From: Candidatus Bathyarchaeia archaeon
GTDB taxonomy: Archaea > Thermoproteota > Bathyarchaeia > 40CM-2-53-6
Direction: 5' to 3'
DNA length: 64,000 bases
Assembly: GCA_049513715.1 (NCBI GenBank)
Contig: JBEKVV010000002.1
Location: 96,001 to 160,000, forward strand
Notes under the pieces: generated by a model
Databases searched by the model: none
The model's input: only the letters and a program-made list of their open reading frames with translations
Told to the model about the DNA's origin: nothing
Position numbers and translations under genes: made by a program
Part shown: piece by piece, positions 28,033 to 53,756 of the stretch
Position numbering within the stretch: the first letter of the stretch is position 1
Layout of the letters: each line of letters starts with the position of its first letter

Positions 28033-28175
28033 AACATCACGCTACTAGATTCTTCCGCTTCTAGTCCTACTTGAGGTACTCGCGCGGCGGTAACGTCAAC
28101 TCTTCGGTTGCTAAGGAAAAAAATCTCCGCTTGTAAAAAGTCGGTTGTTGTGGTAACTACCCAGTTGTTAGAAAA

Positions 28176-28688
28176 TTATTGAGTCCTCGAATCCAGAATA
28201 TTTTTCAATTTGTCGCGAGCTTCGGGGGGAATCTTTGCCTTTTGTACCGCTTGATGTTTGACGTAGTACACTGGGTCACCATTCATATCATATTTGCTAG
28301 TTCGTGAAACCATCGTGACGACTAATTTCACGCCTAAGATAACTCCCTCTGACGATTTGTATTCGTTCCACTCTTCTTTGACTGTATCGAACGGTATATC
28401 TTCAGCAACTACGGAGTTGGCGATTTCCTGAATTGGGTAAGACTGGGTGTCTTTCGCACCTTTGAGTTCCTTCGGCACGGAAGTGGTCAAGATGATATTT
28501 GCCCCCGCTCCAAAGCGGGCATTTCCCTCTGAATCGAGTCCTTCAAGGAAGAATTTCAACAAGATTAGCTTGACTTTGAGCGCGACATCGACCGTATCCT
28601 TGATTGTGTATATACTCCAACCCTCTTTGACAGTATCAAAGTTCAACTCGACTGCGCTAGGGTCGGGTACAGTGGGCTCCAATGTCAT
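28176..28688 (-). CDS. Hypothetical protein made of two tandem homologous domains
   Basis: FDTVKEGWSIY...LKVKLIL repeated as FDTVKEEWNEY...LGVKLVV. Confidence 0.8.
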   Translation of the reverse strand: MTLEPTVPDPSAVELNFDTVKEGWSIYTIKDTVDVALKVKLILLKFFLEGLDSEGNARFGAGANIILTTSVPKELKGAKDTQSYPIQEIANSVVAEDIPFDTVKEEWNEYKSSEGVILGVKLVVTMVSRTSKYDMNGDPVYYVKHQAVQKAKIPPEARDKLKNILDSRTQ

Positions 28689-28788
28689 TCTCTCTGAGAC
28701 GGTTAATGAGGCAACTATTTAAGAAATCGACCATATGTTCGTCTTCTAGGTCATTTTCATATCTCAGATATTCACTCATGACGAGGTT

Positions 28789-29469
28789 GTGCCATTGACA
28801 ACATCCAATTTCGATATTCAAGGCTACGAACTCGTAGGCTCGCAGGTGCTCTACGTTCATGGTCTTGTGTTCCCGATACAATCAGGTTCGATTACCGGAA
28901 CTAGTTCCAAGGCTCAAACAATCATCGTGAACACATCTGGGTTCTCAAATGATCTTCGCGTTTACCCTGTGCCTCACATGGGAACGTCTCATATTGTCTA
29001 TACAGATCAAATAGTGCAGGTCGGAACCCCTCAAGAATGGCACTCAGTTAGTCTTTTAGATCGCCCATCTAGATTCTGGAACTGTTCGATTGAATCATTC
29101 ATTTTTCCATTAGCTGATACAAGCAGAAGTTGGAATGCGATTCGTTTGCCTGCTCGACTAGCAGATTACTCAGATGCGCAAGCTGTCGCATGGTTCGCTT
29201 CTGAATCCGAACTAATTGACTCTGTGAGTAACCTGTGTAATGCCGTTGATTCTGAACTTAGAACAAGAAAGCTTAGATTTTCCAATTCGATAACGACATT
29301 TTCCGACCCTGAAGAAGATGATGATAACTCGCTTATTGTTGAGTATAAGATTGCCAACAAGCATTATGACGAAGTTATCAAGATTTGGAATGCAATCTCG
29401 CTTAAGGTACTGACGGGTTTACCGGAAAATGTACTCGACAAGGTCACTTTGACGATGGAAGACGAATAG
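28789..29469 (+). CDS. Hypothetical protein, putative HEPN partner (start uncertain)
   Basis: Stop lies 1 nt before the HEPN start; acidic FSDPEEDDD motif. Confidence 0.6.
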   Translation: MPLTTSNFDIQGYELVGSQVLYVHGLVFPIQSGSITGTSSKAQTIIVNTSGFSNDLRVYPVPHMGTSHIVYTDQIVQVGTPQEWHSVSLLDRPSRFWNCSIESFIFPLADTSRSWNAIRLPARLADYSDAQAVAWFASESELIDSVSNLCNAVDSELRTRKLRFSNSITTFSDPEEDDDNSLIVEYKIANKHYDEVIKIWNAISLKVLTGLPENVLDKVTLTMEDE

Positions 29470-29470
29470 A

Positions 29471-29842
29471 TTGTTTGCACCTAGCGACTTTCTTGCCTAT
29501 GCTAAATCAATCCCCATTACAGATGAGAAAAGTGCTCGGACTTGCATAGGCCGTGCCTACTACGCAGCTCATCTTTCCGCTAGAGAAAAAGTTCGGTCAC
29601 GCTATCCGAATCTATTTCAGCCTTTTCGCGGGTGCAGTAATGAGCACTCTGTAGTAAGAAACAAGTTAGCAAGGGATTTGAAGAGACCCGACATCACTCA
29701 GAACCTCAGACAATTAGTGCGAAAAAGAGTTCGGGCAGACTACGACATACGAAATTACATCTCCTCCAACCATTTCACAAATGAGGCAACTAGAGCAATC
29801 ATCCTCTGTGATACAATCCTAAAATCTCTCAGCACTGTTTGA
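29471..29842 (+). CDS. HEPN-domain protein
   Basis: R..IGRAYYAA, H.VV, RVRADY. Confidence 0.85.
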   Translation: MFAPSDFLAYAKSIPITDEKSARTCIGRAYYAAHLSAREKVRSRYPNLFQPFRGCSNEHSVVRNKLARDLKRPDITQNLRQLVRKRVRADYDIRNYISSNHFTNEATRAIILCDTILKSLSTV

Positions 29843-29974
29843 TTCTCCTCACTAGCGGCTCGACCCACTTCACGTATTCTTGTTCTTCTCGTTAATTGCG
29901 AGTTCCTTCAGAATCCCAAATCAGATTCGCAACCCTTCCTAGCAACCGACAAGTTGACGTTACCCGCGCGGCGG

Positions 29975-30208
29975 CTAGGGGCGGCGCTTTCTCCCCGTTC
30001 CGTTGCATTCTTGACACGTCCACTCCTGAAACATCCTCACATTCAAACTAGGAACCTTTCCTTCCCTTTTGCAAGCTGGGCAGTAGTCTTCTTGGAGGAT
30101 TCTTCCTTTACCTCCGCAGACCTCGCATATCTTGAAGTAACCTTTGTCTCCGACTTTGTACCAGTGACCGAGGCCGCCTATACATTCTGGGCAAACCTGT
30201 TCGGTCAA
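29975..30208 (-). CDS. Stand-alone DnaJ-type zinc finger protein
   Basis: CPECIGG, CEVCGGKG, CPACKREG, CQECNGTG. Confidence 0.75.
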   Translation of the reverse strand: MTEQVCPECIGGLGHWYKVGDKGYFKICEVCGGKGRILQEDYCPACKREGKVPSLNVRMFQEWTCQECNGTGRKRRP

Positions 30209-30354
30209 TGGAGAATCCTCGTGACAGCATCTAGCTTCAACGGAACAATCGTTCCGCCCATTTGAAGTTCATACCAAAGGTTACAGCGAAGGCAATGTAG
30301 TAACGGAAAACCGTCTTGGCCGAGTAAATCCACGTCGCAATTGGGACATTTCAT
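30205..30354 (-). CDS. Small zinc-ribbon protein (49 aa, absent from ORF track)
   Basis: MKCPNCDVDL...HCLRCNLWY...; stop overlaps the next start. Confidence 0.7.
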   Translation of the reverse strand: MKCPNCDVDLLGQDGFPLLHCLRCNLWYELQMGGTIVPLKLDAVTRILH

Positions 30355-30455
30355 TTTGAATCACGGGCCAATCGTTCTCGTAGTTGCGACTTAAGCGGGG
30401 AACCTGACTGAAACTCAACGGTCAGAGAAGAATGAAACTGAAGTCAGGATATTGT

Positions 30456-31067
30456 TTATTTAGATTCCTCTTCTTCCAAGTATTTCTCTCCTGCTTGCAA
30501 ATGCGCAACGTATCCATCCAGTGATCTCACCGGCACTCGATTTCTATGTTCCCAAATATCCCTCGCGCATGCTTGGAGCATTGGAATCACATCAATTTTC
30601 AGAAAGAGATCAATGTTCTCGCGAGCCGCGGATCTTTTGTGGATTCTTACGATCTCGTCAAGTGCAATTATGAATTGAACTGAGATTCTTGCGATCTGAC
30701 GACCAACAAACTCTCTTAGACGAGTTGGATCGGACATGGTCTCAAGGGACTCATCAATACCCTTTTCTTCGTTGGTTTGGTGTGTCCATTTGTTTATGTC
30801 ATCTATCCTGTTTCTGTAAGCAGTCTCGAATGCTCTTCTGCCTTCTACGGCAGGAATCTCGTGACTTGGGTTCGCTCTGTAGAATCCATCCTCTTGTAGC
30901 ACATATCCGTTGCCAACCAGTAGTTTCAGGTATTTGGCTAACGTCGGCTTGCTGATGCCCGAGCGTCGCCATATTTCTGACCACCTAATGCCCGGCTTCT
31001 CCTCAGACAGTAGGTTTAGGATTCGACTTGGGTACTGACCTTCAATTGCATATCCTTTTCTTGCCAC
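30456..31067 (-). CDS. Winged-helix transcriptional regulator
   Basis: RILNLL....GIRWSEI....GISKPTLAKYLK.L...G.V....G.Y. Confidence 0.78.
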   Translation of the reverse strand: MARKGYAIEGQYPSRILNLLSEEKPGIRWSEIWRRSGISKPTLAKYLKLLVGNGYVLQEDGFYRANPSHEIPAVEGRRAFETAYRNRIDDINKWTHQTNEEKGIDESLETMSDPTRLREFVGRQIARISVQFIIALDEIVRIHKRSAARENIDLFLKIDVIPMLQACARDIWEHRNRVPVRSLDGYVAHLQAGEKYLEEEESK

Positions 31068-31148
31068 GAATATGCCCTCAATGGTTTAATTTACTATCAG
31101 TTAATTTAATCTAACCCTTTATATGTATTTGGTTCATTTAATCGAACC

Positions 31149-31418
31149 ATGCAAGAGCTTGTGGAGAAGAAGCTATGCGGTGCTTGCGGACGAGTTATTC
31201 TGCGGAACCTGTTCTATCTGAACGACTTTGCTTATCACTACGGCTGTGCCAAGAATACTGAGCAATTCGGACGTACTATTGCAACATGCCTAAGTTGCTT
31301 CAGCCATATTACTGCTGAAAATCTCGTGACTTGTGAATTTGGTGATCATAAGTCACGGGTTTGCGGGTTTTGTGGAAGTCTACAACTCCTACTCCGCGCA
31401 ATTCCGAAGCGCGATTAG
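31149..31418 (+). CDS. Zinc-finger protein
   Basis: CGACG, HYGC, CLSC, CGFCG; TTTTATAT and GGTTC-N8-GAACC upstream. Confidence 0.65.
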   Translation: MQELVEKKLCGACGRVILRNLFYLNDFAYHYGCAKNTEQFGRTIATCLSCFSHITAENLVTCEFGDHKSRVCGFCGSLQLLLRAIPKRD

Positions 31419-31421
31419 GCG

Positions 31422-32057
31422 GTGACGAACGTGGAGAGCCGTGAATTGCACGATCTGAGGATGGATACGGCCTCAACTCTGGACATACTCAGAGAGACAA
31501 AATGTCACATGGTTCAAAGAGCTGAAGAAGAAGTGATTTCGAAGCTGCCGTCACCCTCTCGTCTCGCGCCGATGCTGGTCTGTCTTGCATTCATACCCAA
31601 AGCCTTCCCATTGGAGAGCAGGCGTATCTTCGAGATCCTTCATCGACTTGCGTTCCTAGGCGGGGTCAAAGAACTCGTAGAGAACCACGGCTGTTTACTT
31701 CCGCCTCAAGGATTTGAGAAAAGGATTGGAAATGGTGTAATGGATGGTGAGCTTGTAGACCCCTCTGGTAATTCTGTCACGCTTGAGGCCACCGGAGCAG
31801 ATAGGATAAAGATCCAGAAAATCATTCAAGCCTGCCTCTACAAACCCAATGCGGAAAGGAGTGTTTGGGTCTCTTCAATTAGCGAGACAATGGAATGCCC
31901 GCGTTTCCTCATCCGAGCGATAAACGCAAAAGCCTCCGAACTTGTGGCCTTCAAGAATCAATATCCCCAGCTTGCTTCGCGTCTCCAAATGCCTCACCCA
32001 GACGTTTGCCCGCTATGCGACAATAGTGCGTGTCCAAACTGGAAACCTAGACAATAG
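31422..32057 (+). CDS. Hypothetical protein, possible PD-(D/E)XK-like fold with C-terminal Cys motif
   Basis: MDG.L........LEAT; CPLC...C. Confidence 0.5.
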   Translation: MTNVESRELHDLRMDTASTLDILRETKCHMVQRAEEEVISKLPSPSRLAPMLVCLAFIPKAFPLESRRIFEILHRLAFLGGVKELVENHGCLLPPQGFEKRIGNGVMDGELVDPSGNSVTLEATGADRIKIQKIIQACLYKPNAERSVWVSSISETMECPRFLIRAINAKASELVAFKNQYPQLASRLQMPHPDVCPLCDNSACPNWKPRQ

Positions 32058-32336
32058 GGAGGTGAAACAACCACGCAAGAACACTTCGACGTGTACACCC
32101 ATGAACGCTACGAGGTCTGCGAAACATGCGGCAACCCCCTCTCAAAGGATGATGATTCAGAAACATGCCAAACATGCGGGCATGAATTACTACCACCATA
32201 ACCACATTTCTCGGAGACTTCACACATAGCGAATCAACAAGAGTAATCACGTAATTACCTGCTGGAAGCTAGGTGGATCCTGGGTTAAGGCCACGAAGTA
32301 CAGTGCGGGCCACTGGCGCATACCACACCTAACCCC

Positions 32337-32903
32337 TTAAGGTAGAGTGTTCAGTAATCTTTTTAACTGTTTAAAATCTTCTTCCATCACCTGCCTCAAG
32401 CTGGCAGTGTAGAGGGCGGCGGCTGGATGGTACATGGGAAAGTAGGTTATGGGCCCTTCATCGAAGGGTATCCCGTGCAATCCTGTGACAGATTTCTCCG
32501 AATCGATGAATGCTCGGATGGCGGAGTTGCCCATTGGGCAGACAACTTGGGGTCGGATTAAGACAACCTGCCGGTCTAAGTACGGCCTGCAAGCGGTTGT
32601 TTCGTCTTTTCTAGGAGGCCTGTTGTTTGGCGGCCTGCATTTGACAACGTTGGTGATATAGACATCTTCGCGTTTCAGGTTAATTGATCCCAGAAGCTCT
32701 GTGAGGAGTCTTCCAGCCGCACCAACAAACGGGCGACCTTGGATGTCCTCTTCCCCACCGGGGGCCTCGCCCACAAACATCACCTTGGCCTTCTTGGCTC
32801 CTTCACCGGGGACGGCGTTCTTTCTTGTCTCGCAGAGCCGGCACTTCGTACAAGCATTTACCTCCGCTGCCACTACTTCAAGCGAATCTTCCGTCCGAAC
32901 CAA
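32337..32903 (-). CDS. udg: Uracil-DNA glycosylase family 4 (Fe-S)
   Basis: CTKC, GEAPG, PFVG.AG, N.VKCRPP.NR, YHPAA; start set at TTG 32903. Confidence 0.95.
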
Positions 32904-33001
32904 CTCTCCCCGGCACTGACGAGTTGATTCCTTGCGGGCAACGCACTGTATATATGTCTCTTTTCGCTTCACCAAGCGAACTCAATTCAAGGGACAGTTC
33001 A

Positions 33002-33166
33002 ATGCCCATTACTGATGTCGTGAAGAAGCAACTCGCGCAAAAGATTAGGTTGCATTACAAAGTCTGCAGGGACTGTGGCGCACGAAACCCAGGCCCCTCA
33101 AGCCGATGCAGGAAATGCCACGGCCACAACCTTAGATGGAAGAAACGCGAACTCGGCGCCAAGTAG
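33002..33166 (+). CDS. rpl40e: 50S ribosomal protein L40e
   Basis: MPITD...KVCRDCGARNP....CRKC...NLRWKKRE. Confidence 0.95.
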   Translation: MPITDVVKKQLAQKIRLHYKVCRDCGARNPGPSSRCRKCHGHNLRWKKRELGAK

Positions 33167-33305
33167 GTTTAGGGTTCCTTGAGGTTCTTAATGCTGGCAG
33201 CGTGGCCAGCATCCCACCCGCACCCCGCACTCAAAGGTCAGGGTTCGAATTGTTTACTGGGTGACGATGCATAGAGAAACGCCGAATCGAGGGGTCTAGA
33301 GTTTA

Positions 33306-33545
33306 ATGGTCGATCTTCGAAAATTGTCTGAACAGATTCTTGATTTCTTCCACAAAGAGGATGAGAGGCGAGGCCGACTGAATATTCACATAGCTACGTT
33401 GTACAAGGCCTTCGAGAAAGAAGCTCCGTACGAAGTGATTCAACGCGCAATAGCGTTCTTGGTAGATAGAGATCTCATCGCACCGTCCAGCTACGGCCTT
33501 ACCGCCAAAGGCAGACGAGTACATGGCTTGAGACGAAAGGTCTAG
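33306..33545 (+). CDS. Small winged-helix-like hypothetical protein
   Basis: I.RAI.FLVDRDLI....YGLTAKGR. Confidence 0.6.
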   Translation: MVDLRKLSEQILDFFHKEDERRGRLNIHIATLYKAFEKEAPYEVIQRAIAFLVDRDLIAPSSYGLTAKGRRVHGLRRKV

Positions 33546-33694
33546 GATTCTGTCGGATGCGATTGCCCATTTCCGCCGAATAATATCGCCGAATCAATAG
33601 GAAGAGAAGCTAAGCTTTCCTACTCGAATCTCAGAACCGCAATTACGAGGCCAAACAATAATCAAAACGGGGAAGGAATCGTGGGCTAAGCCGC

Positions 33695-33994
33695 CTACGC
33701 GATTCCCATTTGGGCCTTGGCTTCTTCACTCATCTTGTCTGGGCTCCAAGGCGGGTCGAAAACTAAGCTTACTTCAGCGTCCTTAATGCCATTCAACGCC
33801 TTCAGCTTCGCCTTGACCTCATCAGCAATCATCCCACCCATCATGCAGCCCGGCGCGGTCAGGGTCATTTTGACCCCCACTTTCTCGCCGTCAATGTTGA
33901 TGTCGTAAACCAGGCCTAAGTCCCAGATGTTGAGAGGAATCTCTGGGTCGTAACAATCCTTCAATACGGTAATGACTTCGTCTTTCGTAACCAT
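33695..33994 (-). CDS. DUF59/SufT-like Fe-S assembly protein
   Basis: DPEIPLNIWDLGLVY, MTLTAPGC, FDPPW. Confidence 0.93.
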   Translation of the reverse strand: MVTKDEVITVLKDCYDPEIPLNIWDLGLVYDINIDGEKVGVKMTLTAPGCMMGGMIADEVKAKLKALNGIKDAEVSLVFDPPWSPDKMSEEAKAQMGIA

Positions 33995-34119
33995 ACTACT
34001 ATTCACCCCCACGATTCGGCCTTTGCTTTCTCCTACGGTGGAACTCCGCGTCTTCCTTACCTATTAATCTTAGTTTGAACTCGCGGCAAGTCGGATATCC
34101 GAATGGGGTACCCTTATTG

Positions 34120-35286
34120 CTACTTCTGCTTCGACCATGCTATTGGCATGGCTCCGGGAATTGGTTCAAGCAGTTTCGCTGCGTTAACCCTGACCGCGCT
34201 GGTTATTTCCTCGAATAACGGGTTCACGTAGTCCTCAATCTTCCCCGCGTCTGCTAGCCTCGCGATTTCAGGGTCTATTGGAATGGCGCCCAGGTACGGA
34301 ATTCCCGCTTTCTTTGCTGCTTCTTGGGCTTTGCTTGGGCCGAAGATTTCGGTTTTCCATCCACAGTGTGGGCAGATGGCGTAGCTCATGTTCTCCATCA
34401 AACCCAGAATCTTTACCGCGGCGAGTTGTTCGCTAAGTGTTTTGGCCATGTTGATTGCTTTCCCAACCACCATCAACGCCAAATCCTGCGGGGTCGTCAC
34501 CACGATCACTCCCTGCAATGGGAGTGATTGGAAAACAGTAAGCGGGGCATCAGACGTTCCCGGAGGGAGATCTACCAGCAGGAAGTGTAGCTCTCCCCAT
34601 TCTATGTCTTGAAACATTTGGCGGATGACGCTGTTGATGATTGGGCCGCGGACTATGACGGGCATTTGCGGTTCCTCGAGAATTAGGTTCATTGAGACGA
34701 CCTTGATTCCCAATCGGCTCGCTGCTGGTAAGACGTGTTTGTCCGCTGTGACGAAGAGCGGGCCTTTGAGGCCAAACATCTTCGCTATGCTGGGCCCAGT
34801 TATGTCCGCATCAAGAATTCCAACCTTGTACCCCAGCCGTGTCAGCTGAACAGCTAGAAATCCTGTCACGAAGGACTTACCTACTCCGCCCTTTCCAGAC
34901 ATGATAGCGACGACATTTCGGATGCCTTTCCTCTCTAGGCGGTTGATGCCAGGAGGCATACCCGATCCAGTAGCTGGCGCTTGTCCTTTTTGCGCGGCCA
35001 TCCCAGACTGAATCTTAACACGAAGTTCCTCAAGCTCCTGCTTGGTCATGACTGTTGTATCGACGTCTACGTGCTTGATCCCAGGTACCGTCAGCAGGGT
35101 CTTCTCAATGTCGCCAGAAATTGTTTTGGAAAGGGGGCATCCGCCAACAGTTAGGGCCACCTGGACTTTGACCTTGTCGGCTTCGATGTCGACCTTCTTG
35201 ACCATTTGGAGGTTGACTATCGAGATGTGAAGTTCTGGGTCCATGACGTCCTTCAGTTTCGCCATGACCTCGTCTTTTGAAACCAC
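34120..35286 (-). CDS. Mrp/ApbC/Nbp35 Fe-S carrier ATPase with N-terminal DUF59
   Basis: DPEL..TV.GCP, SGKGGVGKS, DLPPGTSD, ENMS..CPHC. Confidence 0.95.
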   Translation of the reverse strand: MVSKDEVMAKLKDVMDPELHISIVNLQMVKKVDIEADKVKVQVALTVGGCPLSKTISGDIEKTLLTVPGIKHVDVDTTVMTKQELEELRVKIQSGMAAQKGQAPATGSGMPPGINRLERKGIRNVVAIMSGKGGVGKSFVTGFLAVQLTRLGYKVGILDADITGPSIAKMFGLKGPLFVTADKHVLPAASRLGIKVVSMNLILEEPQMPVIVRGPIINSVIRQMFQDIEWGELHFLLVDLPPGTSDAPLTVFQSLPLQGVIVVTTPQDLALMVVGKAINMAKTLSEQLAAVKILGLMENMSYAICPHCGWKTEIFGPSKAQEAAKKAGIPYLGAIPIDPEIARLADAGKIEDYVNPLFEEITSAVRVNAAKLLEPIPGAMPIAWSKQK

Positions 35287-35405
35287 TGTTCTATTCCTCG
35301 AGCTTTCCGGACACAGGAAAAGCGTGCCATATTAATCGTTGTTCGATGCGTGTACTCTGGAAATGGTGTCTGTTGGATGATTAACGTAACATTCTGGTTC
35401 GGGTT

Positions 35406-36725: not shown

Positions 36726-36828
36726 GGGCAGCCTTTCCGCTTAACGTTCGAGGCTGGCGCTATTAACTAGATATGTCAGGCGACGTTCGGTAATTGTGGT
36801 TGCGAGGATTCTTCCGCGGTATGCTGCG

Positions 36829-37689: not shown

Positions 37690-37691
37690 TT

Positions 37692-40922: not shown

Positions 40923-40972
40923 TTACCGCACGATTCTGCCCTGTGAGGGGGCTTGCTTATATCAAGTGAGCC

Positions 40973-41797: not shown

Positions 41798-41810
41798 GAT
41801 TTGGTTCCGG

Positions 41811-43236: not shown

Positions 43237-43281
43237 GTTAGTGTGTGCTGAAGAAGGGGCTTTTGCGGCCGTGTCAGGTTC

Positions 43282-45663: not shown

Positions 45664-45706
45664 TTTACCGCGATTTTGCGGCGGTAGTGTTGTTGTTCGA
45701 GTCAGC

Positions 45707-46126: not shown

Positions 46127-46331
46127 GCCCGACAAAAGCCTGCTATCGCATAAGAAGATTTGCAGTCGACTCAACCTCAGTGTATAGCATAGTCTAGACA
46201 TCTTTTCTGCAGGCCAATGAAAGCTGAAGTCCAGGTATGGGATCAGAATCGGGGTTTCTACGGCTTTTTTTCCGATCAATCTAAAAGCGCGCGTAGGTTC
46301 AACTGACTCAGCGTTAACGCTTGATTGGGCT

Positions 46332-46598
46332 ATGGTGACCGACTTGGGTGGGAAGCTGCGGCGTCACGGAATCTGGTCAGTTCTCGTACCAGTCGATGTT
46401 ATGATGGTGATTTTGCTGATTCTCTTGAACTTCGAGAGCAAGTCCGGCGTGACGATAGCGGACAGCGGGATGAAAGTTGAAGCTGTCGCCTTCACGGCTT
46501 TGTTGACCGTAGGATTACTAGCGCCATTCGCCTGGCGATGGTGGCTTAACCTCAAGAAATCCCCTGCCGCTCCAGTAGAGGTCAAGGTTGAGAATTGA
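46332..46598 (+). CDS. Small 2-TM membrane protein
   Basis: Two hydrophobic segments; overlaps next gene start. Confidence 0.55.
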   Translation: MVTDLGGKLRRHGIWSVLVPVDVMMVILLILLNFESKSGVTIADSGMKVEAVAFTALLTVGLLAPFAWRWWLNLKKSPAAPVEVKVEN

Positions 46599-47266
46599 AA
46601 CCCGAATGGGTCACGTTTGATTGTTATGGAACTCTGGTTGATTGGGAAACAGGAATCAGAACTGTTCTCAATCAGATAATCAGTGAGAAGAAGGCCAAAG
46701 TGCGCATTGACGATTTGCTGAAGGCCAGAGAAGACGCTGAGTTTGAACTGATTCAAAGCCCATACAAAAGTTACAGGGAGTTCTTGCACCTTAGTTTGCA
46801 GGAGGCCTGCAGGCGGTTCCACGTACCTTACTCTCCCCGGGACGGGGTGAGGCTGGCCGAGTCGATTCCAACATGGCCGGTCTTCAAAGAAACCAAACCA
46901 GCACTCGAACAACTCGCAGAGAAATGCAAGTTGGGGATCATTTCAAACATTGACACGGACATAATCGAAGCGACCAAAGCCAAGGTCGGAGTCCAGTTCG
47001 CGTTAACGGTTACCGCCCAAGAGGTTGGGGCCTACAAACCAAGCACAAAGCCTTTCGAAGTGACCCTGCAAAAACTTGGTTGCCCACCTGACCGGGTCCT
47101 TCATGTTTCATCCGGTTTCAAGTACGATATTCCACCCGCACACAGGATCGGTTTCAGCACGGCTTGGGTAAACCGAAAGAAGGAAGCTAAACCTTCAGGC
47201 CTGCAAGCCGATCACGAGTTCAGGAGCCTCACCGAACTGGCCGAATATGTCACTGAGACCTCCTGA
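46595..47266 (+). CDS. Haloacid dehalogenase type II-like HAD hydrolase
   Basis: TFDCYGTLVDW, ISN.D, YKP, LHVS. Confidence 0.9.
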   Translation: MKPEWVTFDCYGTLVDWETGIRTVLNQIISEKKAKVRIDDLLKAREDAEFELIQSPYKSYREFLHLSLQEACRRFHVPYSPRDGVRLAESIPTWPVFKETKPALEQLAEKCKLGIISNIDTDIIEATKAKVGVQFALTVTAQEVGAYKPSTKPFEVTLQKLGCPPDRVLHVSSGFKYDIPPAHRIGFSTAWVNRKKEAKPSGLQADHEFRSLTELAEYVTETS

Positions 47267-47422
47267 GCCCCTGACAGCGAAGAGACCGCCTTGCTCCAAG
47301 CCACTCAACGAGTGGCCAAGCAACCTGAAAACTAGCCAGCACCACAAACTCGAATGTAGTACCCTAGTAATACATTCGAAATAATATCCCTACCATACCC
47401 CCCAACATACCCCTATGCTGGA

Positions 47423-47453
47423 GTGTATACACCCAACGTTTGGGTGTATACAC
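47423..47453. repeat. Perfect 14-bp inverted repeat with self-palindromic arms
   Basis: GTGTATACACCCAA-CGT-TTGGGTGTATACAC. Confidence 0.85.
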
Positions 47454-47582
47454 CCTGACAAGGAAGGTGTGTGATGTCACCTCACTCTCGGGCGAGACTT
47501 GGGTGCTGGCTGTTACTGTCACACTCGGTTAGACCCCTCTAATACTACATTCGCATTAGTTCGGTTTGGTTGTTGTTGGTCT

Positions 47583-48101
47583 TCATTTTGTTGCGGGTTG
47601 TTTTCTGAGGTGAGCGGGTAGTCTGCCTTTCTGCATCATCTCTTTGCCCCGCTTGATGATTGGGTTGGCGGGGTTGATTTGCAGAGCCTTTGCGATTGAT
47701 TGCGAGGATGCTTCAGCCTTTCCGGTCAAGTATTGTGCCCACGCAAGGTTGAACCAGGCGTACTCATTGTTCGGGTTCACTTTGACCGCTCGCTCCAACG
47801 TCGGTATGGCATCATGGGCTTTCCCTAGGTCGATGAGAGCCCACCCTTTGCTCACGAGCGCGATGTCATCGTCAGGATTCAGAGTTAAGCTCCGTTCCGA
47901 GTGTTCCAAAGCGTTTTCCGAGTATTTCCATTCCCGGCGAGCGTTGGCGAGTCTGTTGAGGGCATAGGCCTTGAGGGCAAGTGCTTGGCTGTTTTCGGGT
48001 GTGACTTTGATGATGCGGTTGAGCTGCAGGATTGCTTGCTCGGGTCTGTTCTGCGAATAGAGCAAATAGAATATTTCATCTCGGAGGTTTGATGGTTTCA
48101 A
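47583..48101 (-). CDS. TPR-repeat protein
   Basis: Repeated A...P.N..A...(K/L)(A/G)..L pattern. Confidence 0.88.
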   Translation of the reverse strand: MKPSNLRDEIFYLLYSQNRPEQAILQLNRIIKVTPENSQALALKAYALNRLANARREWKYSENALEHSERSLTLNPDDDIALVSKGWALIDLGKAHDAIPTLERAVKVNPNNEYAWFNLAWAQYLTGKAEASSQSIAKALQINPANPIIKRGKEMMQKGRLPAHLRKQPATK

Positions 48102-48375
48102 GGCTGCGACGTCCTCCTGAGGATAAACTTCTTGATGGGCATATCGGCCTAAGAGATAACTGTCTGTTCACCAGAGGTGGACGCCGCATTATTGGAGTTT
48201 AGCTGTTCCTTTTCCAGTTCGATTTTCGGCAAGCCTTCTGTCAATTCAAGGATAGCTCTCACACTTGAGTCGAACATTCGCAGTCTGGTTTCGTTTGGTG
48301 GGCTGGTATTTCTAACACCCCGACAAAAGGCAGATGAAGCGGCCTTGATGATCAACCACCCAAGGGCGTTAGGCT

Positions 48376-48585
48376 TTGACCCCAAAGGAACGCGAGTTAC
48401 TTCAGGGAATGGCTAATTGCTACAAAGCGTGCCACGCGACTTTCGAAGAAACAGTGGGCATGGTTGGGTCTGCCCGAGGCCTCACCTCTGCTGAAGTCAA
48501 GGAAATGTTGGAACGATTGAAACATGAAGGTGGGGAGGAGTACATGGCGCTTAGGCGAAAGCTTCCTGGCGATTTCCCACTGTGA
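48376..48585 (+). CDS. Small hypothetical protein
   Basis: GTGA overlap with next gene; CYKACH. Confidence 0.6.
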   Translation: MTPKERELLQGMANCYKACHATFEETVGMVGSARGLTSAEVKEMLERLKHEGGEEYMALRRKLPGDFPL

Positions 48586-49499
48586 GATTGGAGGCCTCAC
48601 GATTGACAAAATGCTCAGTATGCGGAGAAGCATTCGCTAGGGGAGACTACAGCAGCCTTGCAAGCCACTTGTATGAATTTTCTGAAAGAAGCGATGTGGA
48701 GCACGTGATGTGGCTGAACAAGAACATCACGAAGAAAAAAACGAAGGCGGCAGAGCTTTCACAACTGATGGGTGAATACTTCGACACGCATGACGACCTG
48801 AAAGGTTGGATTAAGAAAAGATTCATTGAGAGATTCTACGGACCCAACCCACACCCCTTCGTGCTCGCCCTCCAACACCCCTCAAGGGCCACGCTGTTAG
48901 GCTACGTCGTGGAGCACCAACATTTCCTGAGGCAGTGGACTCGTTCGTGCGCTTACATTATTGCGAAAACCGATAAGGTCGACGTTACGCTTTACGAACT
49001 TGACAACATAAACACCGAATTCGGCGGCAGTGGTGTCGGAAAACCGTCGCATTATGAGCTGCTGTTGCGAATGGGCGAAAGCCTGGGCCTGCCAAGGGAA
49101 AAAGCCCTTGCAACACCACCGCTACCTGATACGGCTTCGGCAATCAATACCTGGAACAGTATCGCCGAGAAGGACCACTGGTTGGAGACGATGGTGGCGA
49201 TGCATGGGCTCGAACTGATAGCCGACCGGAACCTAACGAACGAAGGGGCCTCGGTTCACTACTTTGACCCTGAGGTCCTGAAGGGCAAGGACGTAACGGA
49301 AGGAACCAAGAACTTCCTCAGGGAAGGCTACGAGGCCGACGTCAAGCACTCTGAAGAAGCCCTGAAACTTGTTGACAAGTACTCCGCAGAACTCGGTATA
49401 ACGGAGAACGTTCAGGCAACGTTCCTAAAATCCATCCATGCCTTCGACTATTACTTAATGGCCCGTTTGGAGAGAGGGAAGCAGTTTGAAGGTTCCTGA
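48582..49499 (+). CDS. C2H2-Zn-finger fused PqqC/TenA-like (heme-oxygenase-fold) redox enzyme
   Basis: CSVC...HL......H; N..TE......SHYELL, HGLE, AD.KH. Confidence 0.75.
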   Translation: MRLEASRLTKCSVCGEAFARGDYSSLASHLYEFSERSDVEHVMWLNKNITKKKTKAAELSQLMGEYFDTHDDLKGWIKKRFIERFYGPNPHPFVLALQHPSRATLLGYVVEHQHFLRQWTRSCAYIIAKTDKVDVTLYELDNINTEFGGSGVGKPSHYELLLRMGESLGLPREKALATPPLPDTASAINTWNSIAEKDHWLETMVAMHGLELIADRNLTNEGASVHYFDPEVLKGKDVTEGTKNFLREGYEADVKHSEEALKLVDKYSAELGITENVQATFLKSIHAFDYYLMARLERGKQFEGS

Positions 49500-49782
49500 A
49501 GGCTGCGCCATTTGCGGGGCCACGTGGGGCAACCACTGGGCCGAGGTGGAAGACCAACGAATGTTCTTCTGCTGCAAGATTTGTGAAACGGAATTTCGCA
49601 ACATGATTGACCAAGTCAAGGCCAGGACCGGCTGGAGCACAATAGATGAAATCAAAATTCAAGGAGACCAAAGGAGCAGGCTGTGCACAGCGTTCTCCGG
49701 CAATAACACATACAAATTCACCATTAGCTTCAACTCGCAGGGGGGAATTCGAACCTTCGAAATAGGCCCTTCCCAAGCTTAG
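49486..49782 (+). CDS. TA0938-family zinc-binding protein
   Basis: GCAICGATWG......MFFCC.IC. Confidence 0.8.
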   Translation: MKVPEGCAICGATWGNHWAEVEDQRMFFCCKICETEFRNMIDQVKARTGWSTIDEIKIQGDQRSRLCTAFSGNNTYKFTISFNSQGGIRTFEIGPSQA

Positions 49783-49794
49783 GCCAACTGCAAG

Positions 49795-50254
49795 GATGAC
49801 CAGACAAGGTTTTTGGATTGCTCAAGAAGTAGCTGACACGAAGTACACCGCCGACCTAAGGCCACTTTTCAAGCTAGGCAAAGCGATTACAGAGAAGCAG
49901 CCTAAGACGCTCGTATCTGATGGTGCGATGAATTTCCATGTGGCATACAAAAGCGAGTTCCGCACAGCTAGGCTTGAGAACCGAACAGAACACATACGAC
50001 ACCTCAGACTCTAAGGCGATTACAATAACAACAAGATGGAGCGCATGAACGGGGAAATCCGAGACAGAGAACGAGTAATGCGAACCTTAGAAAGGAAAGA
50101 CACACCGATACTCACTGGTATCCAGATATTCCACAACTACATAAGACCGCACATGGCACTGAAAGGGAAACCCCCTGCGGAAGTTGCAGGAATCAAGGTT
50201 GAGGGGGAAAACAAGTGGCTCACGATAATTCAAGACGCAAGTCGAAACGGGTAG
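49795..50254 (+). pseudogene. IS6-like DDE transposase C-terminal remnant
   Basis: Closely parallels 52752-53215 (FWIAQEVADTKYTAD...KWLTIIQ); extra T near 49810 and in-frame TAA at 50012-50014. Confidence 0.92.
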
Positions 50255-50375
50255 TTCTCTCTCACTTCTTGTTTGTCGAACTATATACGTGCACTTGGTA
50301 ACTTATGAGGGGGTTGATCCTCGTTGCGTAAAGTCTAATTGCCATTATACAAATGTGCGTAATGTGCGTTGATAG

Positions 50376-50900
50376 TTGCCAGATGCTAAGCCTGTACCGT
50401 TGAAGACGCTTGACAAAGACGCAGAAACAGGCCTAATCGTCGAGAGCATTAGCGGCGAAAAGGTCGTTACATTCCGAACCAAAACCTTCCTGCAATTGAT
50501 GGATAGGCTCATGGAATTACTAGGGGGCACGGTTGGTGCCACTGTCCTTCATCAGATGGGTATCGACGTAGGTCGAAGCTTGTTCGGCTATTTGAAAGAC
50601 GAAGTGAAATCTGAAAGCGATCTGGCCAGTGCGATGGACATTGTGATGGCGGAAAGAGGTTGGGGAAGATGTAGGGCAATAGAGAAGCTTGAGATGAGAG
50701 GTTTAGCATACAGCATAAGAACCGAAGGCAATCCGATTTCTGGTACGCATGGGAAAAATGAGCCCATGTGCCACTTCATCCGAGGAAACTACACAGGCTT
50801 TCTTGAAGCATACCTACACAAGAAGGCAAAAACTAGCGAACAGGTCGCTTGCACAGCACTCGGCGCACCATATTGCACCTTTGAAATAACATTCGCTTAG
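50376..50900 (+). CDS. V4R-domain protein
   Basis: GWG, P.CHF.RG..G, C.A.G.PYC.F. Confidence 0.85.
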   Translation: MPDAKPVPLKTLDKDAETGLIVESISGEKVVTFRTKTFLQLMDRLMELLGGTVGATVLHQMGIDVGRSLFGYLKDEVKSESDLASAMDIVMAERGWGRCRAIEKLEMRGLAYSIRTEGNPISGTHGKNEPMCHFIRGNYTGFLEAYLHKKAKTSEQVACTALGAPYCTFEITFA

Positions 50901-51027
50901 TGGAAGATCGACAAGCTCACAATACTGGATGGCCCATCAACCGTGAAGGTAACGTTACCTTACGTAAGGTAACGTCACTTCTGCGTTTGGTGAAAGCATC
51001 TCGTAGCTGTGTAACAATTCGTTTGGT

Positions 51028-51513
51028 TCAGTAGCGTCTTTCGTAGCGAGAAAGTTTAATCTTCGCCTTGGCTGGCCTGAGAATTGTGCGTTGTATGCGT
51101 TCCCTGAAAGTTATGTCAAATTTCAAGAAGACTGAATCCCGACCCAGTACAGTATACGGTATAGCCTCTGGATTGACTGGGACGAAGACAGGCATGTCTG
51201 CGAAAGTTGCTATATTATTTCCCGCTTTCAAGACCTCGATGGTGAGGTTGAAAATCACTGTGTCGAACCCGCCGCCTGCACCTATAGATGGTGTTGCCTT
51301 TTTGGGGTCTATTTGGAGACCTAAGATTTCTGCTAGGTCTGTTGGGACGAATGTATTGGTCGCTCCTGAATCAACAAGACCTAAAGTTGTTAGACTTGCT
51401 GTTGCTGTCCTAAGTCTGACATGGAGAAGCGGAACCCTAAACGCTCGCTTAAGCAGGGGATGATAATATGAAAGATAACGATTTACTACAGCACCTTTGA
51501 AAAGAGAGGACAA
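51028..51513 (-). CDS. Retropepsin-like aspartyl protease
   Basis: LVDSGAT, A..LGL, VLGRD. Confidence 0.85.
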   Translation of the reverse strand: MSSLFKGAVVNRYLSYYHPLLKRAFRVPLLHVRLRTATASLTTLGLVDSGATNTFVPTDLAEILGLQIDPKKATPSIGAGGGFDTVIFNLTIEVLKAGNNIATFADMPVFVPVNPEAIPYTVLGRDSVFLKFDITFRERIQRTILRPAKAKIKLSRYERRY

Positions 51514-51519
51514 GTTAGG

Positions 51520-51714
51520 TTACAGCAGCATTACGGTGTCGGACGGAATTTTCATAACGAATGGCTCCTTGTCTGGATACCTTCGTTTGGCTTCCGCGAA
51601 CACTTCTTTTCCGCTGTCACCAGATGCAACAAGTTCCTTGCCAACGAGCGCAATCCATTTGCCTACATACTCGCGTAGATCGCCCATTGACATTAGGTAG
51701 TTCAAATAGTCCAT
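51520..51714 (-). CDS. DUF5678-like small protein
   Basis: Y.GKWIAL....VASG......A...YP...P....IP. Confidence 0.85.
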   Translation of the reverse strand: MDYLNYLMSMGDLREYVGKWIALVGKELVASGDSGKEVFAEAKRRYPDKEPFVMKIPSDTVMLL

Positions 51715-51784
51715 TTTTCTCTACTCCTGAAAAATAACAACTGTACATTTAACCCTGTTGTTCGCCTATCCAATGTTACAGTCG

Positions 51785-51982
51785 TTAATCCTCTTTCCTT
51801 CTAACAGTTTTAGACGGGTCGGCGCTAATCCAGAGAACAATGGCTTCCTCGACAGCTTCCGAGATGTTGCCTTTTTTCATGCCTTTACGCTTGAAAACCT
51901 CTTCTTTGAACCGCTTTTCTCTGTCTGCTGGCAAATACACATCTATTCGAGATTTGCCTTTTGGGACGCTTGGAGACACCAT
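51785..51982 (-). CDS. Ribbon-helix-helix DNA-binding protein
   Basis: RIDVYLP...KRFKEEV......KGNISEAVEEAI.LW; divergent from the transposase. Confidence 0.8.
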   Translation of the reverse strand: MVSPSVPKGKSRIDVYLPADREKRFKEEVFKRKGMKKGNISEAVEEAIVLWISADPSKTVRRKED

Positions 51983-52090
51983 CTAGCCCTCAGAAAGCAT
52001 ATAGACACATTACCACTTATAACCTTTACCCCCTTACCACCAGCTTTATCTAGGAAAGAGGCGTATAGGTGTTTAAGTGGTAAACCACCA

Positions 52091-53215
52091 ATGCAAGTCC
52101 TCAGAACTCGTGAAGAAAGGGGCCGAATAATTGCCGAAAAGTCTAACCAAATTGTTCGATTGGATGAACGGTTCTACCGTGTAACTTCTCAGTCTGGCAA
52201 TGGAATGTATGATGTGACCAAGCGCAAGGTCGGTGGATGGTTATGTACTTGCCCCGACTTCGAGTTTCGTAACGTTCAATGTAAGCACGTTTGGGCTGTC
52301 CAATTCAGCCTAGCCGTAAGGAAAGAGGTCGAGGCTAGAGTCATTGAGCCAATAACAGACATACACGCTTGCCTATTCTGCAAATCCGAGAACATAATTC
52401 GCTGGGGCTTACGCCACAACAAGTACGGCGACATTCAGAAATTCTCCTGCAAATCATGTGGCAAATTCTTCACGATCAATCTAGGCTTTGAGAAGATGAA
52501 GCACAGCCCTCAAGCGATAACGACAGCCATGCAACTATACTTCTCAGGCGAAAGTCTACGGAATACGGCTAGATCGCTACGCTTGATTGGAGCGCAAGTG
52601 AGCCATCAGACAATCTACAGGTGGATAGCCAAGTACACGACATTGATGGAGAAATATCTGGACAAGATTACGCCTCAAGTCTCGGACACTTGGGCCACAG
52701 ACGAATTATTTCTGAAGATTAAGGGGAACATGAAGTATCTCTACGCTATGATGGATGAGCAAACACGGTTTTGGATAGCTCAAGAGGTTGCGGATACGAA
52801 ATACACGGCTGACGTTCGACCACTATTCCAACTCGCCAAGCAAATCGCAGGCAAGCAACCAAAGACGCTCGTCTCTGACGGTGCGGCCAATTTCCATGAA
52901 GCATACCTGAAAGAGTTCCGCACAGCCAAACTTGAGAACAGAACCGAACACATACGACACATCAGACTAGCAGGAGATTACAACAATAACAAGATGGAGC
53001 GCATGAACGGGGAAATCAGAGACCGAGAAAAAGTGATGCGGGGCTTAGAAATCAAAGACAGCCCAATACTCAAGGGCGTACAAATCTACCATAACTTTGT
53101 GAAGCCGCACATGGCACTAGACAACAGAACACCCGCTCAAGCAGCGGGAATAGAAGTCAAGGGCAAAGACAAATGGCTAACAATCATACAGAACGCTAGT
53201 CAAGAGAAAACCTAA
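52091..53215 (+). CDS. IS6-like DDE transposase with N-terminal SWIM and CxxC zinc fingers
   Basis: CTCPDF..CKH (SWIM), CLFC..CKSC, HTH VSHQTIYRW, W.TDE, SDG, NN.MER. Confidence 0.92.
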   Translation: MQVLRTREERGRIIAEKSNQIVRLDERFYRVTSQSGNGMYDVTKRKVGGWLCTCPDFEFRNVQCKHVWAVQFSLAVRKEVEARVIEPITDIHACLFCKSENIIRWGLRHNKYGDIQKFSCKSCGKFFTINLGFEKMKHSPQAITTAMQLYFSGESLRNTARSLRLIGAQVSHQTIYRWIAKYTTLMEKYLDKITPQVSDTWATDELFLKIKGNMKYLYAMMDEQTRFWIAQEVADTKYTADVRPLFQLAKQIAGKQPKTLVSDGAANFHEAYLKEFRTAKLENRTEHIRHIRLAGDYNNNKMERMNGEIRDREKVMRGLEIKDSPILKGVQIYHNFVKPHMALDNRTPAQAAGIEVKGKDKWLTIIQNASQEKT

Positions 53216-53246
53216 TCCCAGTTCTCGATAAACTTAGGAAGTCTTG

Positions 53247-53480
53247 TCAAGTCTTGTTCGGCGACTTGAGGAGAGCTATCCAGTCAAGCGCCCTCTTCTT
53301 CACCTCACCAACCGAGGCTTTTTCACCGATTTCGATTAACGCAGGTATAGCAGTTACACCAAATGCGGCGACAGCGTTAACTGCTGATACTCTAGCTTCA
53401 TAATCTGCCCATTTCGCATACGTAGGCATAGATTGTAGAGCTACCCCCTTCAGTCTATCTATCTGCTCCTTCTCTGACAA
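53247..53480 (-). CDS. Small HEAT-repeat-like protein (transposon cargo)
   Basis: R.SAV.AV..FG..AIPAL.E......VK..AL. Confidence 0.6.
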   Translation of the reverse strand: MSEKEQIDRLKGVALQSMPTYAKWADYEARVSAVNAVAAFGVTAIPALIEIGEKASVGEVKKRALDWIALLKSPNKT

Positions 53481-53679
53481 TGCTGAGCACTTCCTCTATC
53501 CCTTTTCTATATGGATGATTCATGTACCATGCCAGAAAAGCCTTTGCGTCATTTCCATCCATTTTGAGTATGATCTCGAAGAAGCCAAGCTCGTTCCGTA
53601 GATGCCTCGTCACACGCCATCTTAACCACCGATTTACAAACGCTCTACGCCACCGACCAAACGGTTTGTTACAGCCCAA
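53455..53679 (-). CDS. Hypothetical protein (transposon cargo)
   Basis: ORF overlapping the HEAT-like gene; no recognisable motif. Confidence 0.35.
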   Translation of the reverse strand: MGCNKPFGRWRRAFVNRWLRWRVTRHLRNELGFFEIILKMDGNDAKAFLAWYMNHPYRKGIEEVLSIVREGADR

Positions 53680-53709
53680 AAAAATCGGTCTACCAAACTA
53701 AGACGTTAC

Positions 53710-53756
53710 GTTACCTTACGTAACAAAATTTATATCTGTCTGTTACTAATGGTAAC
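53710..53756 (+). promoter_or_regulatory. hsp20 promoter with GTTAC-N5-GTAAC palindromes on both sides of the TATA box
   Basis: AAAA-TTTATA at ~53725-53734; GTTACcttacGTAAC 53710-53724 and GTTACtaatgGTAAC 53742-53756. Confidence 0.65.

Follow-up and report, generated by a model that had tools for sequence, protein, structure and literature searches.

We analyzed a 64,000-nucleotide stretch of archaeal DNA (hereafter the window), which corresponds to positions 96001-160000 of contig C2 in the 11-contig, 2.79-Mb assembly of a Candidatus Bathyarchaeia archaeon. The assembly is a metagenome-assembled genome (MAG) that is 99.4% complete. The window holds three transposable elements: a transposase-free cargo cassette (E1), a decayed element with a transposase relic (E2) and, tip to tip with E2 and just upstream of an hsp20 gene, an autonomous element (E3). 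A preliminary description of the window had recognized autonomous, decayed and transposase-free forms united by a 24-bp terminal repeat, and all three forms are real. The five ends it had aligned are present exactly as written at 28089(+), 29964(-), 50959(-), 50968(+) and 53715(-), and both complete elements have exact 8-bp target-site duplications, CGCGCGGC for E1 and TTACGTAA for E3. As it had also proposed, the elements are IS6-like, with GG tips and 8-bp duplications, and are far longer than canonical IS6 insertion sequences (IS). We consider it very probable that all three belong to a large group of IS6-like DNA transposons that is found in archaea and carries variable cargo.

Three elements with related ends

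E3 moved recently, and its protease, DUF5678 protein and downstream open reading frames (ORFs) were carried along as one unit. A second copy lies at C2:73001-75748; it shows 100% identity to E3 along all 2748 bp, and the duplication that flanks it, ATCCCGAG, is a different one. When this copy and one duplication are removed in silico, a 701-aa ORF is restored. The halves of the split gene encode a KaiC-like ATPase with tetratricopeptide repeats (TPRs) and further TPRs, respectively, and the same-genus genome G015 has an uninterrupted 706-aa ortholog (87% identity). Furthermore, other assemblies include contigs of exactly 2748 bp that encode the same transposase protein.

The second E3 copy was among the matches recovered when a weight matrix built from the five ends was scanned across the 2.79-Mb genome, as the preliminary description had suggested. 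The further ends found are paired and have 8-bp duplications; besides the E3 copy, they delimit C3:1570-4235 (duplication CTTTCGGC) and C4:198559-201627 (duplication AACTTAAC). The description had regarded unpaired matches that lack duplications and are unlinked to the transposase as the outcome that would speak against a family. The ends are instead paired, flanked by duplications and linked to the transposase. Note that a search with the 24-nt pattern itself is circular, because the pattern was built from the same five ends. A less circular check is given by the tip 8-mer GGTAACGT, which occurs 7 times in the window (0.89 expected), a count reached in none of 100 shuffles.

The E3 transposase matches the Pfam families DDE_Tnp_IS240 (E 1.7e-13; 51.4 bits against a cut-off of 27) and SWIM (E 7.5e-6), and its residues 94-128 resemble the zinc-binding domain of IS1/IS1595 in an NCBIfam scan. 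An alignment of 10 family members showed no variation at D204, D263 or E303, at the SWIM ligands C52/C54/C64/H66 or at the second Cys4 set. At least three passenger genes accompany the transposase, among at least four further ORFs. Pfam confirmed the cargo labels first given by eye to E2 (V4R) and E3 (protease and DUF5678). The ribbon-helix-helix (RHH)-like ORF of E3 has no Pfam match of its own; it is 44-50% identical by tblastn to ORFs in the same slot at loci L018, L021 and L082. The L021 ORF (41% identical to that of E3 in the alignment) matches RHH_6 in Pfam, and the same-slot ORF of L015 matches RHH_1. The two ORFs downstream of the transposase look HEAT-like by eye from the translation only and had no match in Pfam or NCBIfam.

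Between the RHH-like gene and the transposase gene, the TTACCAC/GTGGTAA sites (52010-52083) are candidate operators for the element's own regulator. A sigma-70 promoter and terminator scan of E3 gave nothing above shuffled sequences, the sigma-70 model being irrelevant to archaea. At L076, a DUF5678 and aspartyl-protease pair that is 33-34% identical to that of E3 lies downstream of another element's transposase (6191-6721). The pair therefore behaves as a mobile two-gene module.

E1 is present as a single copy in the genome, and no transposase was found in it by tblastn, Pfam or NCBIfam. Its 170-aa ORF has a 30%-identical homologue in the cargo of another element (L054). For its 123-aa ORF, 21 of 30 matches in a language-model protein atlas belong to a set whose cluster has PF05168 HEPN in 11% of members. 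The HEPN label obtained no match in Pfam or NCBIfam, and among PDB sequences the ORF resembled designed helical repeats only (E 0.05 or worse). The suggestion that the cargo is partly toxin-like is thus a lead: it points to this HEPN-like ORF, recognized by motif and atlas look-alikes with no profile match, and to a PIN domain in a neighboring relic. A 4.1-kb query across E1 found no conserved flanks among 40 relatives, in which only the 24-bp end matched, and no ORF spans the reconstructed site; E1 is therefore without the empty-site proof available for the second E3 copy.

The preliminary description had one SWIM-DDE transposase mobilizing interchangeable cargo, and this part did not hold. 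We find three distinct intact transposase lineages in the genome, each with its own inner end motif: that of E3, that of C3a (C3:2152-3261, inside the C3 element above; 79% identity to E3's) and that of C4a (C4:199768-200865, inside the C4 element above; 68%). The ends of E1 fit yet another sub-lineage. They are identical to those of E3 at 19 of 24 positions and match those of the L020 element, whose transposase is 66% identical to E3's, at 21-23 of 24. In the same-genus genome G019, an E1-type right end (24/24) delimits an autonomous element of 4508 bp, which is flanked by the duplication TGACGTAA and encodes a transposase sharing 64% identity with that of E3. The same right end (24/24) is found in G012, also of this genus, on 186-bp miniature inverted-repeat transposable elements (MITEs), two of four having exact duplications. 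No transposase of the E1-cognate type was found by tblastn in this 99.4%-complete assembly. Because its ends fit another sub-lineage whose enzyme was not found here, E1 appears to be stranded or cross-mobilized. It would have kept its ends and may be moved in trans by the cognate enzyme of that other sub-lineage, present in a sister genome.

The DNA to the right of E1 (29987-30106 and 30373-30443) is repeated at C1:9918-10036 (83%), C1:490802-490854 (91%) and C1:381272-381334 (82%). These repeats are unrelated to the IS6-like ends and may be tRNA-derived repeat families.

The transposase relic of E2 is 76% identical to the E3 transposase by tblastn over residues 227-371. Homologues of its V4R protein are also found in neighboring elements of L011/L012 (36%) and G019 (68%). 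The left end of E2 is lost and the relic abuts a host ORF ending at 49782, as if the left half had been removed by an adjacent deletion. This upstream ORF (49486-49782) encodes a Cys-rich protein of 98 aa, and the truncation point lies 13 nt past its stop.

Elsewhere in the genome, we detected seven further transposase fragments in addition to the E2 relic. Four more transposase-free elements, all with exact duplications, came from a general search for inverted repeats of the form GG...CC bordered by identical 8-bp sequences (Table 1). An all-versus-all BLASTP of the ORFs from the 13 elements and fragments of the genome showed that only the transposase (with antisense shadow ORFs) is shared, which bears out the earlier statement that each element carries different passenger genes. 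Two further arrangements were seen. At C4:198551-204981, two elements stand in tandem (3069 bp with transposase and 3338 bp without), with three copies of AACTTAAC and a TATA-like box beyond the transposase-bearing one. On C9, a 20.8-kb contig with no transposase match, a tip-to-tip junction (1794-1941) has three to four copies of CGGTTGATGG inside one end.

Table 1. Features of E1, E2, E3 and the adjoining hsp20 promoter in the window, and transposase-free elements elsewhere in the genome. Positions without a contig name are those of the window; nucleotide and amino acid lengths are given where reported.
Feature	Position	Strand	Basis or remark
E1, transposase-free cargo element (like a mobile insertion cassette), 1876 bp	28089..29964	.	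Ends agree 22/24, exact 8-bp duplication
E1 left target-site duplication CGCGCGGC	28081..28088	.	Identical to 29965-29972
E1 right target-site duplication CGCGCGGC	29965..29972	.	Read directly
E1 left bipartite end, tip GGTAACGT	28089..28149	+	CGGTTGCT at positions 17-24, second copy CGGTTGTT at about 54-61
E1 right end	29941..29964	-	24/24 match in same-genus G012 and G019
E1 passenger ORF, 170 aa	28176..28688	-	No Pfam or NCBIfam family
E1 passenger ORF, 226 aa	28789..29469	+	No Pfam or NCBIfam family
E1 passenger ORF, 123 aa, HEPN-like	29471..29842	+	R-x5-H motif, protein-atlas look-alikes
E2 transposase relic, in-frame stop 50012-50014	49796..50254	+	Begins at about residue 221; two 72-aa ORFs
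E2 passenger gene, V4R domain protein, 174 aa	50376..50900	+	Pfam V4R, E 3.3e-9
E2 right end, palindromic tip GGTAACGTTACC, inner motif CGGTTGAT	50936..50959	-	End pattern
E3, autonomous element, 2748 bp	50968..53715	.	Ends, exact duplication, 100% identical second copy
E3 left target-site duplication TTACGTAA, simultaneously the 8 bp flanking the E2 tip	50960..50967	.	Read directly
E3 right target-site duplication TTACGTAA	53716..53723	.	Read directly
E3 left bipartite end	50968..51027	+	CGTTTGGT at positions 17-24, repeated at 53-60
E3 right bipartite end	53656..53715	-	End-motif analysis
Passenger, retropepsin-like aspartyl protease, 161 aa	51028..51513	-	Pfam Asp_protease_2, E 7.7e-7
Passenger, DUF5678 protein, 64 aa	51520..51714	-	Pfam, E 1.4e-15
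Small RHH-like gene (regulator slot), divergent from transposase	51785..51982	-	Same-slot ORF similarity
Divergent control region, three TTACCAC/GTGGTAA sites	51983..52090	.	Includes perfect 10-bp inverted repeat TTACCACTTA/TAAGTGGTAA
Transposase, 374 aa: SWIM (CxCx9CxH), second Cys4 zinc ribbon, helix-turn-helix region, DDE core	52091..53215	+	Pfam, NCBIfam, alignment
Two overlapping ORFs, 77 and 74 aa, different frames	53247..53679	-	Possibly one frameshifted passenger gene
TATA box TTTATATC of the hsp20 promoter, 5 bp beyond the E3 duplication	53729..53736	+	Followed by operator-like GTTACTAATGGTAAC
hsp20 gene, its promoter a recurrent landing site	53778..54395	+	Pfam HSP20
Transposase-free element, 2372 bp	C1:494348-496719		Exact duplication
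Transposase-free element, 3338 bp, KaiC-like and SRPBCC cargo	C4:201636-204973		Exact duplication
Transposase-free element, 836 bp	C3:181573-182408		Exact duplication
Transposase-free element, 364 bp	C1:872324-872687		Exact duplication

Ends, relatives and cargo of the group

The 24-bp repeat of the preliminary description is present, as the outer half of a longer structure: the actual ends are bipartite and span at least 60 bp. The outer 24-mer combines the tip with a lineage-specific 8-nt motif at positions 17-24 (CGTTTGGT, CGGTTGCT, CGGTTGAT, CGTCGGAT and others). Each element's own inner motif recurs further inside, in direct orientation and with at least 7 of 8 matches, in 79 of 114 ends. 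Unrelated motifs did so in a mean of 4.3 ends (maximum of 10), and the reverse orientation in none. The second copy starts solely at positions 42-44, 52-54 or 62-63, in steps of approximately one helical turn, which suggests that each end has two sites for transposase binding. The family-wide tip is GGTTCTGTCAAG and the full tip consensus GGTTCTGTCAAGTCTT, with the window's GGTAACGT being a local variant. Across 1540 pairs, transposase identity and end similarity were correlated with a Spearman's rho of 0.14, with a clear rise only above 70-80% protein identity, which argues only weakly for strict coevolution of transposase and ends.

Homologues of the transposase are numerous, with 5411 found at E <=1e-5 in a large protein collection. 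A scan of genome contigs confirmed 263 relatives, and 79 loci were kept. The hosts include Bathyarchaeia, Nitrososphaeria (among them Nitrosotalea devanaterra and Nitrosocosmicus), Methanoperedens, Thermoplasmata and Asgard MAGs. Element boundaries were called where the transposase lies between paired inverted repeats that match at 15 or more of 24 positions and adjoin identical 8-bp sequences. We found a GG-tipped pair with an exact 8-bp duplication in 53 of the 79 genome loci, with lengths ranging from 2031 to 8093 bp, and the same architecture in 34 of 77 metagenome loci (2169-6280 bp).

Cargo was scanned for 150 of 198 listed cargo ORFs, those from other genomes. The 25 with a Pfam match are heterogeneous between elements. 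They include ArsR/HxlR regulators, RHH, MazE, NYN, GNAT, glyoxalase, SET, a proteasome-like subunit and a C39-like peptidase, as well as GmrSD with HNH, S and M subunits of type I restriction-modification systems, ParB-DUF488, DUF3800 and CBS. The position divergent from the transposase (the regulator slot) is usually taken by a small DNA-binding gene; these genes belong to several unrelated kinds. A single conserved accessory 'regulator' protein was considered and rejected: the 23 upstream-slot ORFs aligned with 18% mean column identity and no invariant column. Internal end-like sites, 16 in total, were found within 12 of 57 elements (e.g., L084, L022, L027, L086 and C4a), approximately twice the genome background, and some also carry the inner motif. 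Together with the stacking described below, they suggest that neighboring elements fuse once their inner ends decay. Such composite elements would inherit the cargo and the dead transposases of the fused neighbors.

The elements are IS6-like by catalytic core, tips and duplication, yet they lack the compactness of IS6 members and fall below the NCBIfam cut-off for the family. With IS26, IS257/IS431, IS6100 and IS240 they share an IS240/IS6-type DDE core, GG tips with a G at position 7, and the 8-bp duplication. All five window ends begin GGTAACG, and the duplication is exact for E1, both E3 copies, C3a and C4a. The family-wide tip GGTTCTGTCAAG also fits the IS6 tip consensus 'GG..cTGTt..caaa' given in the available text of Varani et al. 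(2021, PMC7986276), although the tip of this genus is GGTAACGT instead of GGnnCTGT. According to the same text, IS6 members measure 0.7-0.9 kb, and the long clades h and i have a zinc finger and come from Clostridia. E3 (2748 bp) and its relatives (2-8 kb) are longer than both these and the long clades, which reach 1.5-1.8 kb with a transposase only, and they hold several genes rather than one. Further differences are an N-terminal SWIM and zinc-ribbon extension of ~190 aa, bipartite ends of at least 60 bp instead of 14-20 bp, and a strong target preference. The long zinc-finger branch (the ISCpe7 group, which is clade h of Varani 2021 and clade VII of Harmer and Hall 2019) and ISDsp3 likewise have an N-terminal zinc-finger extension on an IS6-type core. 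Compared by description only, however, they are bacterial (Clostridia and Dehalococcoides), 1.2-1.5 kb long and have at most one passenger. In the available text of PMC7986276, no catalogued IS6 member other than ISDsp3 has a passenger gene.

We saw simple insertions with duplications only, which are compatible with resolved cointegrates and not diagnostic of them. Mobile insertion cassettes (MICs), such as MIC231 of Bacillus cereus, provide a name for E1, C1:494348-496719 and C4:201636-204973, which have IS-type ends, a duplication and passengers and are without a transposase. E3 fits the term transporter IS (tIS) as used in the available text of PMC7986276, because its passenger genes lie within one pair of IS ends and moved as a unit. 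Both terms are descriptive classes and not families; here, both forms occur with MITEs and one-site stacking in a single archaeal lineage.

Harmer and Hall (2019), in the available text of PMC6807381, treat the 37 archaeal members in the catalogue, together with the long bacterial ones, as no more than distant relatives of true IS6/IS26 elements, and state that there are no experiments on them. Krupovic et al. (2019, PMC6563490), in the corresponding part of their text, describe thaumarchaeal IS-like transposons with one or two genes and list passenger-gene transposons as undetected in archaea. The words 'passenger', 'promoter', 'TATA' and 'SWIM' are absent from the available text of a 2026 IS survey of 17,237 archaeal genomes (PMC13343696). 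Our full-text literature search, with ISfinder entries and supplements outside its scope, returned no description of cargo-carrying or TATA-targeting archaeal IS6-like elements. A plasmid collection yielded only bacterial IS6 cores with 25-33% identity and no close annotated relative.

Target sites and the hsp20 promoter

Many elements of this group lie at a fixed distance from a TATA box. Reading outward from each duplication, we found the pattern TTTAWATA (at least 7 of 8 matches) beginning at offset 5 in 27 of 115 flanks, compared with no more than two at any offset beyond 10; after dereplication, 22 of 106 flanks had it at offset 5. A looser rule (at least 6 of 8 matches, offsets 2-8) applied to 52 of 116 flanks, representing 43 of 58 elements, whereas 13 control windows gave 6-16 of 116. 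In the typical case, an outward ORF begins 25-55 nt past the TATA-like box. The boxes thus have the appearance of genuine promoters, and the element would lie immediately upstream of the B recognition element (BRE). The rule was formed on the genome loci and then tested on the 77 metagenome loci, where 27 of 34 bounded elements obey it. In the strict test on 48 dereplicated metagenome flanks, six had the pattern at offset 5, one at offset 3 and none elsewhere.

The hsp20 promoter next to E3 is a hot spot that recurs across genomes. To the right of the E3 duplication come CAAAA, TTTATATC, GTTACTAATGGTAAC and hsp20, in that order. We inspected the regions upstream of hsp20 in 30 related genomes. 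Among the same-genus genomes, hsp20 was found in 18, and in 16 of these its N5-TATA is preceded, at a distance of exactly 8 bp, by an element tip (...GTTACC). The hsp20 orthologs (77-82% identical) adjoin different elements in L012, L013, L022, L023, L029 and G019. The site is apparently empty in G002 and G003, yet GTTACC is present there too, within an operator-like GTTAC-N5-GTAAC. Elements of this genus, with their GGTAAC tip, thus supply or rebuild the upstream half-site of the hsp20 operator. The identity of tip and operator may reflect mimicry, pseudo-end targeting or coincidence. The operator-like palindrome GTTAC-N5-GTAAC occurs on both sides of the hsp20 TATA box (53724-53760 of the window) and is clearest in the distant genomes G025, G032 and G040.

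A second recurrent landing site was seen among the metagenome loci L170, L172, L181 and L203, which have the flank AGGTCTTTATACGGGT, the duplication GTCGCCAC or its complement, and different occupants.

Elements also stand tip to tip, separated by exactly 8 bp; this genome has four such junctions, and they are frequent elsewhere. Among 57 transposase-bearing elements, 17 abut another end: 13 of these have the TATA box on the other side, two are sandwiched and two have neither. That the box lies on the far side in 13 of 17 favors a choice of target referenced to the promoter over one referenced to resident ends. In all three stacks of this genome (E3 over E2, C3a over C3b and C4a over C4b), the promoter-proximal element is the one with an intact transposase. 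We think that targeting is probably a property of the transposition machinery rather than of survival.

Competing explanations and significance

An autonomous member of the group comprises one pair of bipartite ends (GG tip, 8-bp motif at 17-24, second direct copy one to three helical turns inward) and one transposase uniting a SWIM zinc finger, a Cys4 zinc ribbon, a helix-turn-helix and an IS6/IS240-type DDE core. It usually also has a small DNA-binding gene divergent from the transposase, and variable passengers on either side. The whole unit moves and creates the 8-bp duplication, as it did in the second copy of E3, and the chemistry is presumably an IS6-like copy-in with cointegrate resolution. 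Judging by the flanks, the staggered cut usually falls at a position that leaves 5 bp between the duplicated 8 bp and a TATA box downstream, and thus keeps the BRE/TATA promoter intact. What is read at the promoter may be its sequence, its bend or the TBP/TFB complex. Repeated insertions at the same 8 bp would build up rows of elements whose tips face each other across 8-bp spacers, with the youngest nearest the promoter. New cargo and composite elements would probably arise from such stacks.

Tentatively, these steps can be joined into one account, which we put forward as a possibility with the odds still against it. The SWIM/zinc-ribbon transposase may read the archaeal pre-initiation complex, or the TBP/TFB bend on BRE-TATA, and cut at a fixed upstream register, as a prokaryotic counterpart of Ty3 and TFIIIB. 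Promoters would then become stacking sites at which elements lose inner ends, fuse, swap cargo and shed transposase-free cassettes, and GGTAAC tips would rebuild half of the hsp20 operator and leave heat-shock control intact. In eukaryotes, Ty3 integrates at Pol III start sites through TFIIIB, and Tf1 at Pol II promoters. The likeness is in the fixed register to a TBP-bound promoter element and in the gene being left intact. The Ty3 and Tf1 enzymes are retroelement integrases, whereas here the enzyme is a prokaryotic DDE transposase, with any tethering factor hypothetical.

Several observations weigh against the view of the window as part of a large, cargo-carrying, promoter-directed IS6-like group. 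Harmer and Hall, in the available text of PMC6807381, hold that the archaeal and long zinc-finger IS6 groups should be placed outside the family. The best NCBIfam match of the E3 transposase is transpos_IS6, over the full profile (1-202 of 202), at 110.6 bits against a cut-off of 125 (C3a, 103.3; C4a, 111.3), and identity to bacterial IS6 transposases is 25-33% over the core. Boundaries were not accepted at 26 of the 79 genome loci and 43 of the 77 metagenome loci, many of them on short contigs; of the 26, three with non-GG pairs (L024, L057 and L059) were dropped before counting and 23 gave nothing. Most cargo ORFs are without a known family, and the MAG has an estimated contamination of 8.8%. 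Furthermore, the loci are not independent, as the hsp20 site recurs in related genomes and some metagenome contigs probably stem from the same organism. Nor is targeting absolute: 15 of 58 elements are without a TATA-like flank, and the demonstrably recent insertion, the second E3 copy, lies inside the KaiC/TPR gene.

These last two facts mean that the promoter bias among older copies could partly be survivorship, with insertions landing anywhere and those just upstream of intact promoters being tolerated. As the whole explanation of the promoter association, we regard survivorship as unlikely. Selection explains an intergenic position and not a register of a single base, and this register was replicated on the metagenome loci. 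Moreover, different elements reuse the same 8 bp, with AACTTAAC present three times at C4 and TTACGTAA at the hsp20 promoter in several genomes. We give slightly less credence still to a choice guided by ends. In that scenario, the transposase would sit on a resident tip, or on a host hexamer that resembles one (for example, the GTTACC half of the hsp20 operator), and would capture the 8 bp next to it. The four tip-to-tip junctions at exactly 8 bp would follow from it, approximately 25 of 106 dereplicated flanks begin like another end, and the apparently empty hsp20 site of G002 and G003 has GTTACC at the tip position. However, 21 elements have a TATA flank and no neighboring end, and most of the family follows the TATA rule with GGTTCTGT tips. 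A choice guided by ends would also use both ends about equally, whereas the other flank of the 17 abutting elements is TATA in 13 and 'other' in two.

The extra genes might be conserved accessory functions for transposition, as in Tn7 or Mu, rather than cargo. A small DNA-binding gene is common in the divergent slot, where at least five unrelated kinds were seen (RHH, AbrB/MazE-like, zinc ribbon and two of no known fold), and the DUF5678-protease pair recurs in L076. We nevertheless find this improbable, because no ORF other than the transposase is common to the genome's 13 elements and fragments, the recognizable cargo is metabolic, regulatory or restriction-type and varies by element, and the transposase-free and 186-364-bp forms keep exact duplications. 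Pseudo-compound transposons in the style of IS26, in which two direct-repeat IS copies bracket captured DNA, are the usual route of gene carriage among IS6 members in the available text of PMC7986276. Here they are hardly credible: each element has one transposase gene, the ends are inverted and not direct, the exact 8-bp duplication surrounds the whole unit, and E1 is without any IS copy. A group of IS6-like transposons that carry their cargo between their own ends remains the reading that we favor.

Standard IS callers would report only the 1.1-kb transposase of such elements, so that the boundaries, the cargo and the transposase-free cassettes would go unnoticed. The single-base register to the TATA box raises the question of how a DDE transposase finds an archaeal promoter, and offers a possible tool for placing DNA beside promoters without breaking them. 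The available text of the IS6 review lists one passenger-carrying member for the entire family (PMC7986276). Cargo-carrying transposons were stated to be undetected in archaea in the available text of PMC6563490; here, they have hundreds of relatives in at least five archaeal lineages, and cargo is the rule. These elements therefore probably provide a major route by which genes, among them restriction-type genes, spread in soil and peat archaea.

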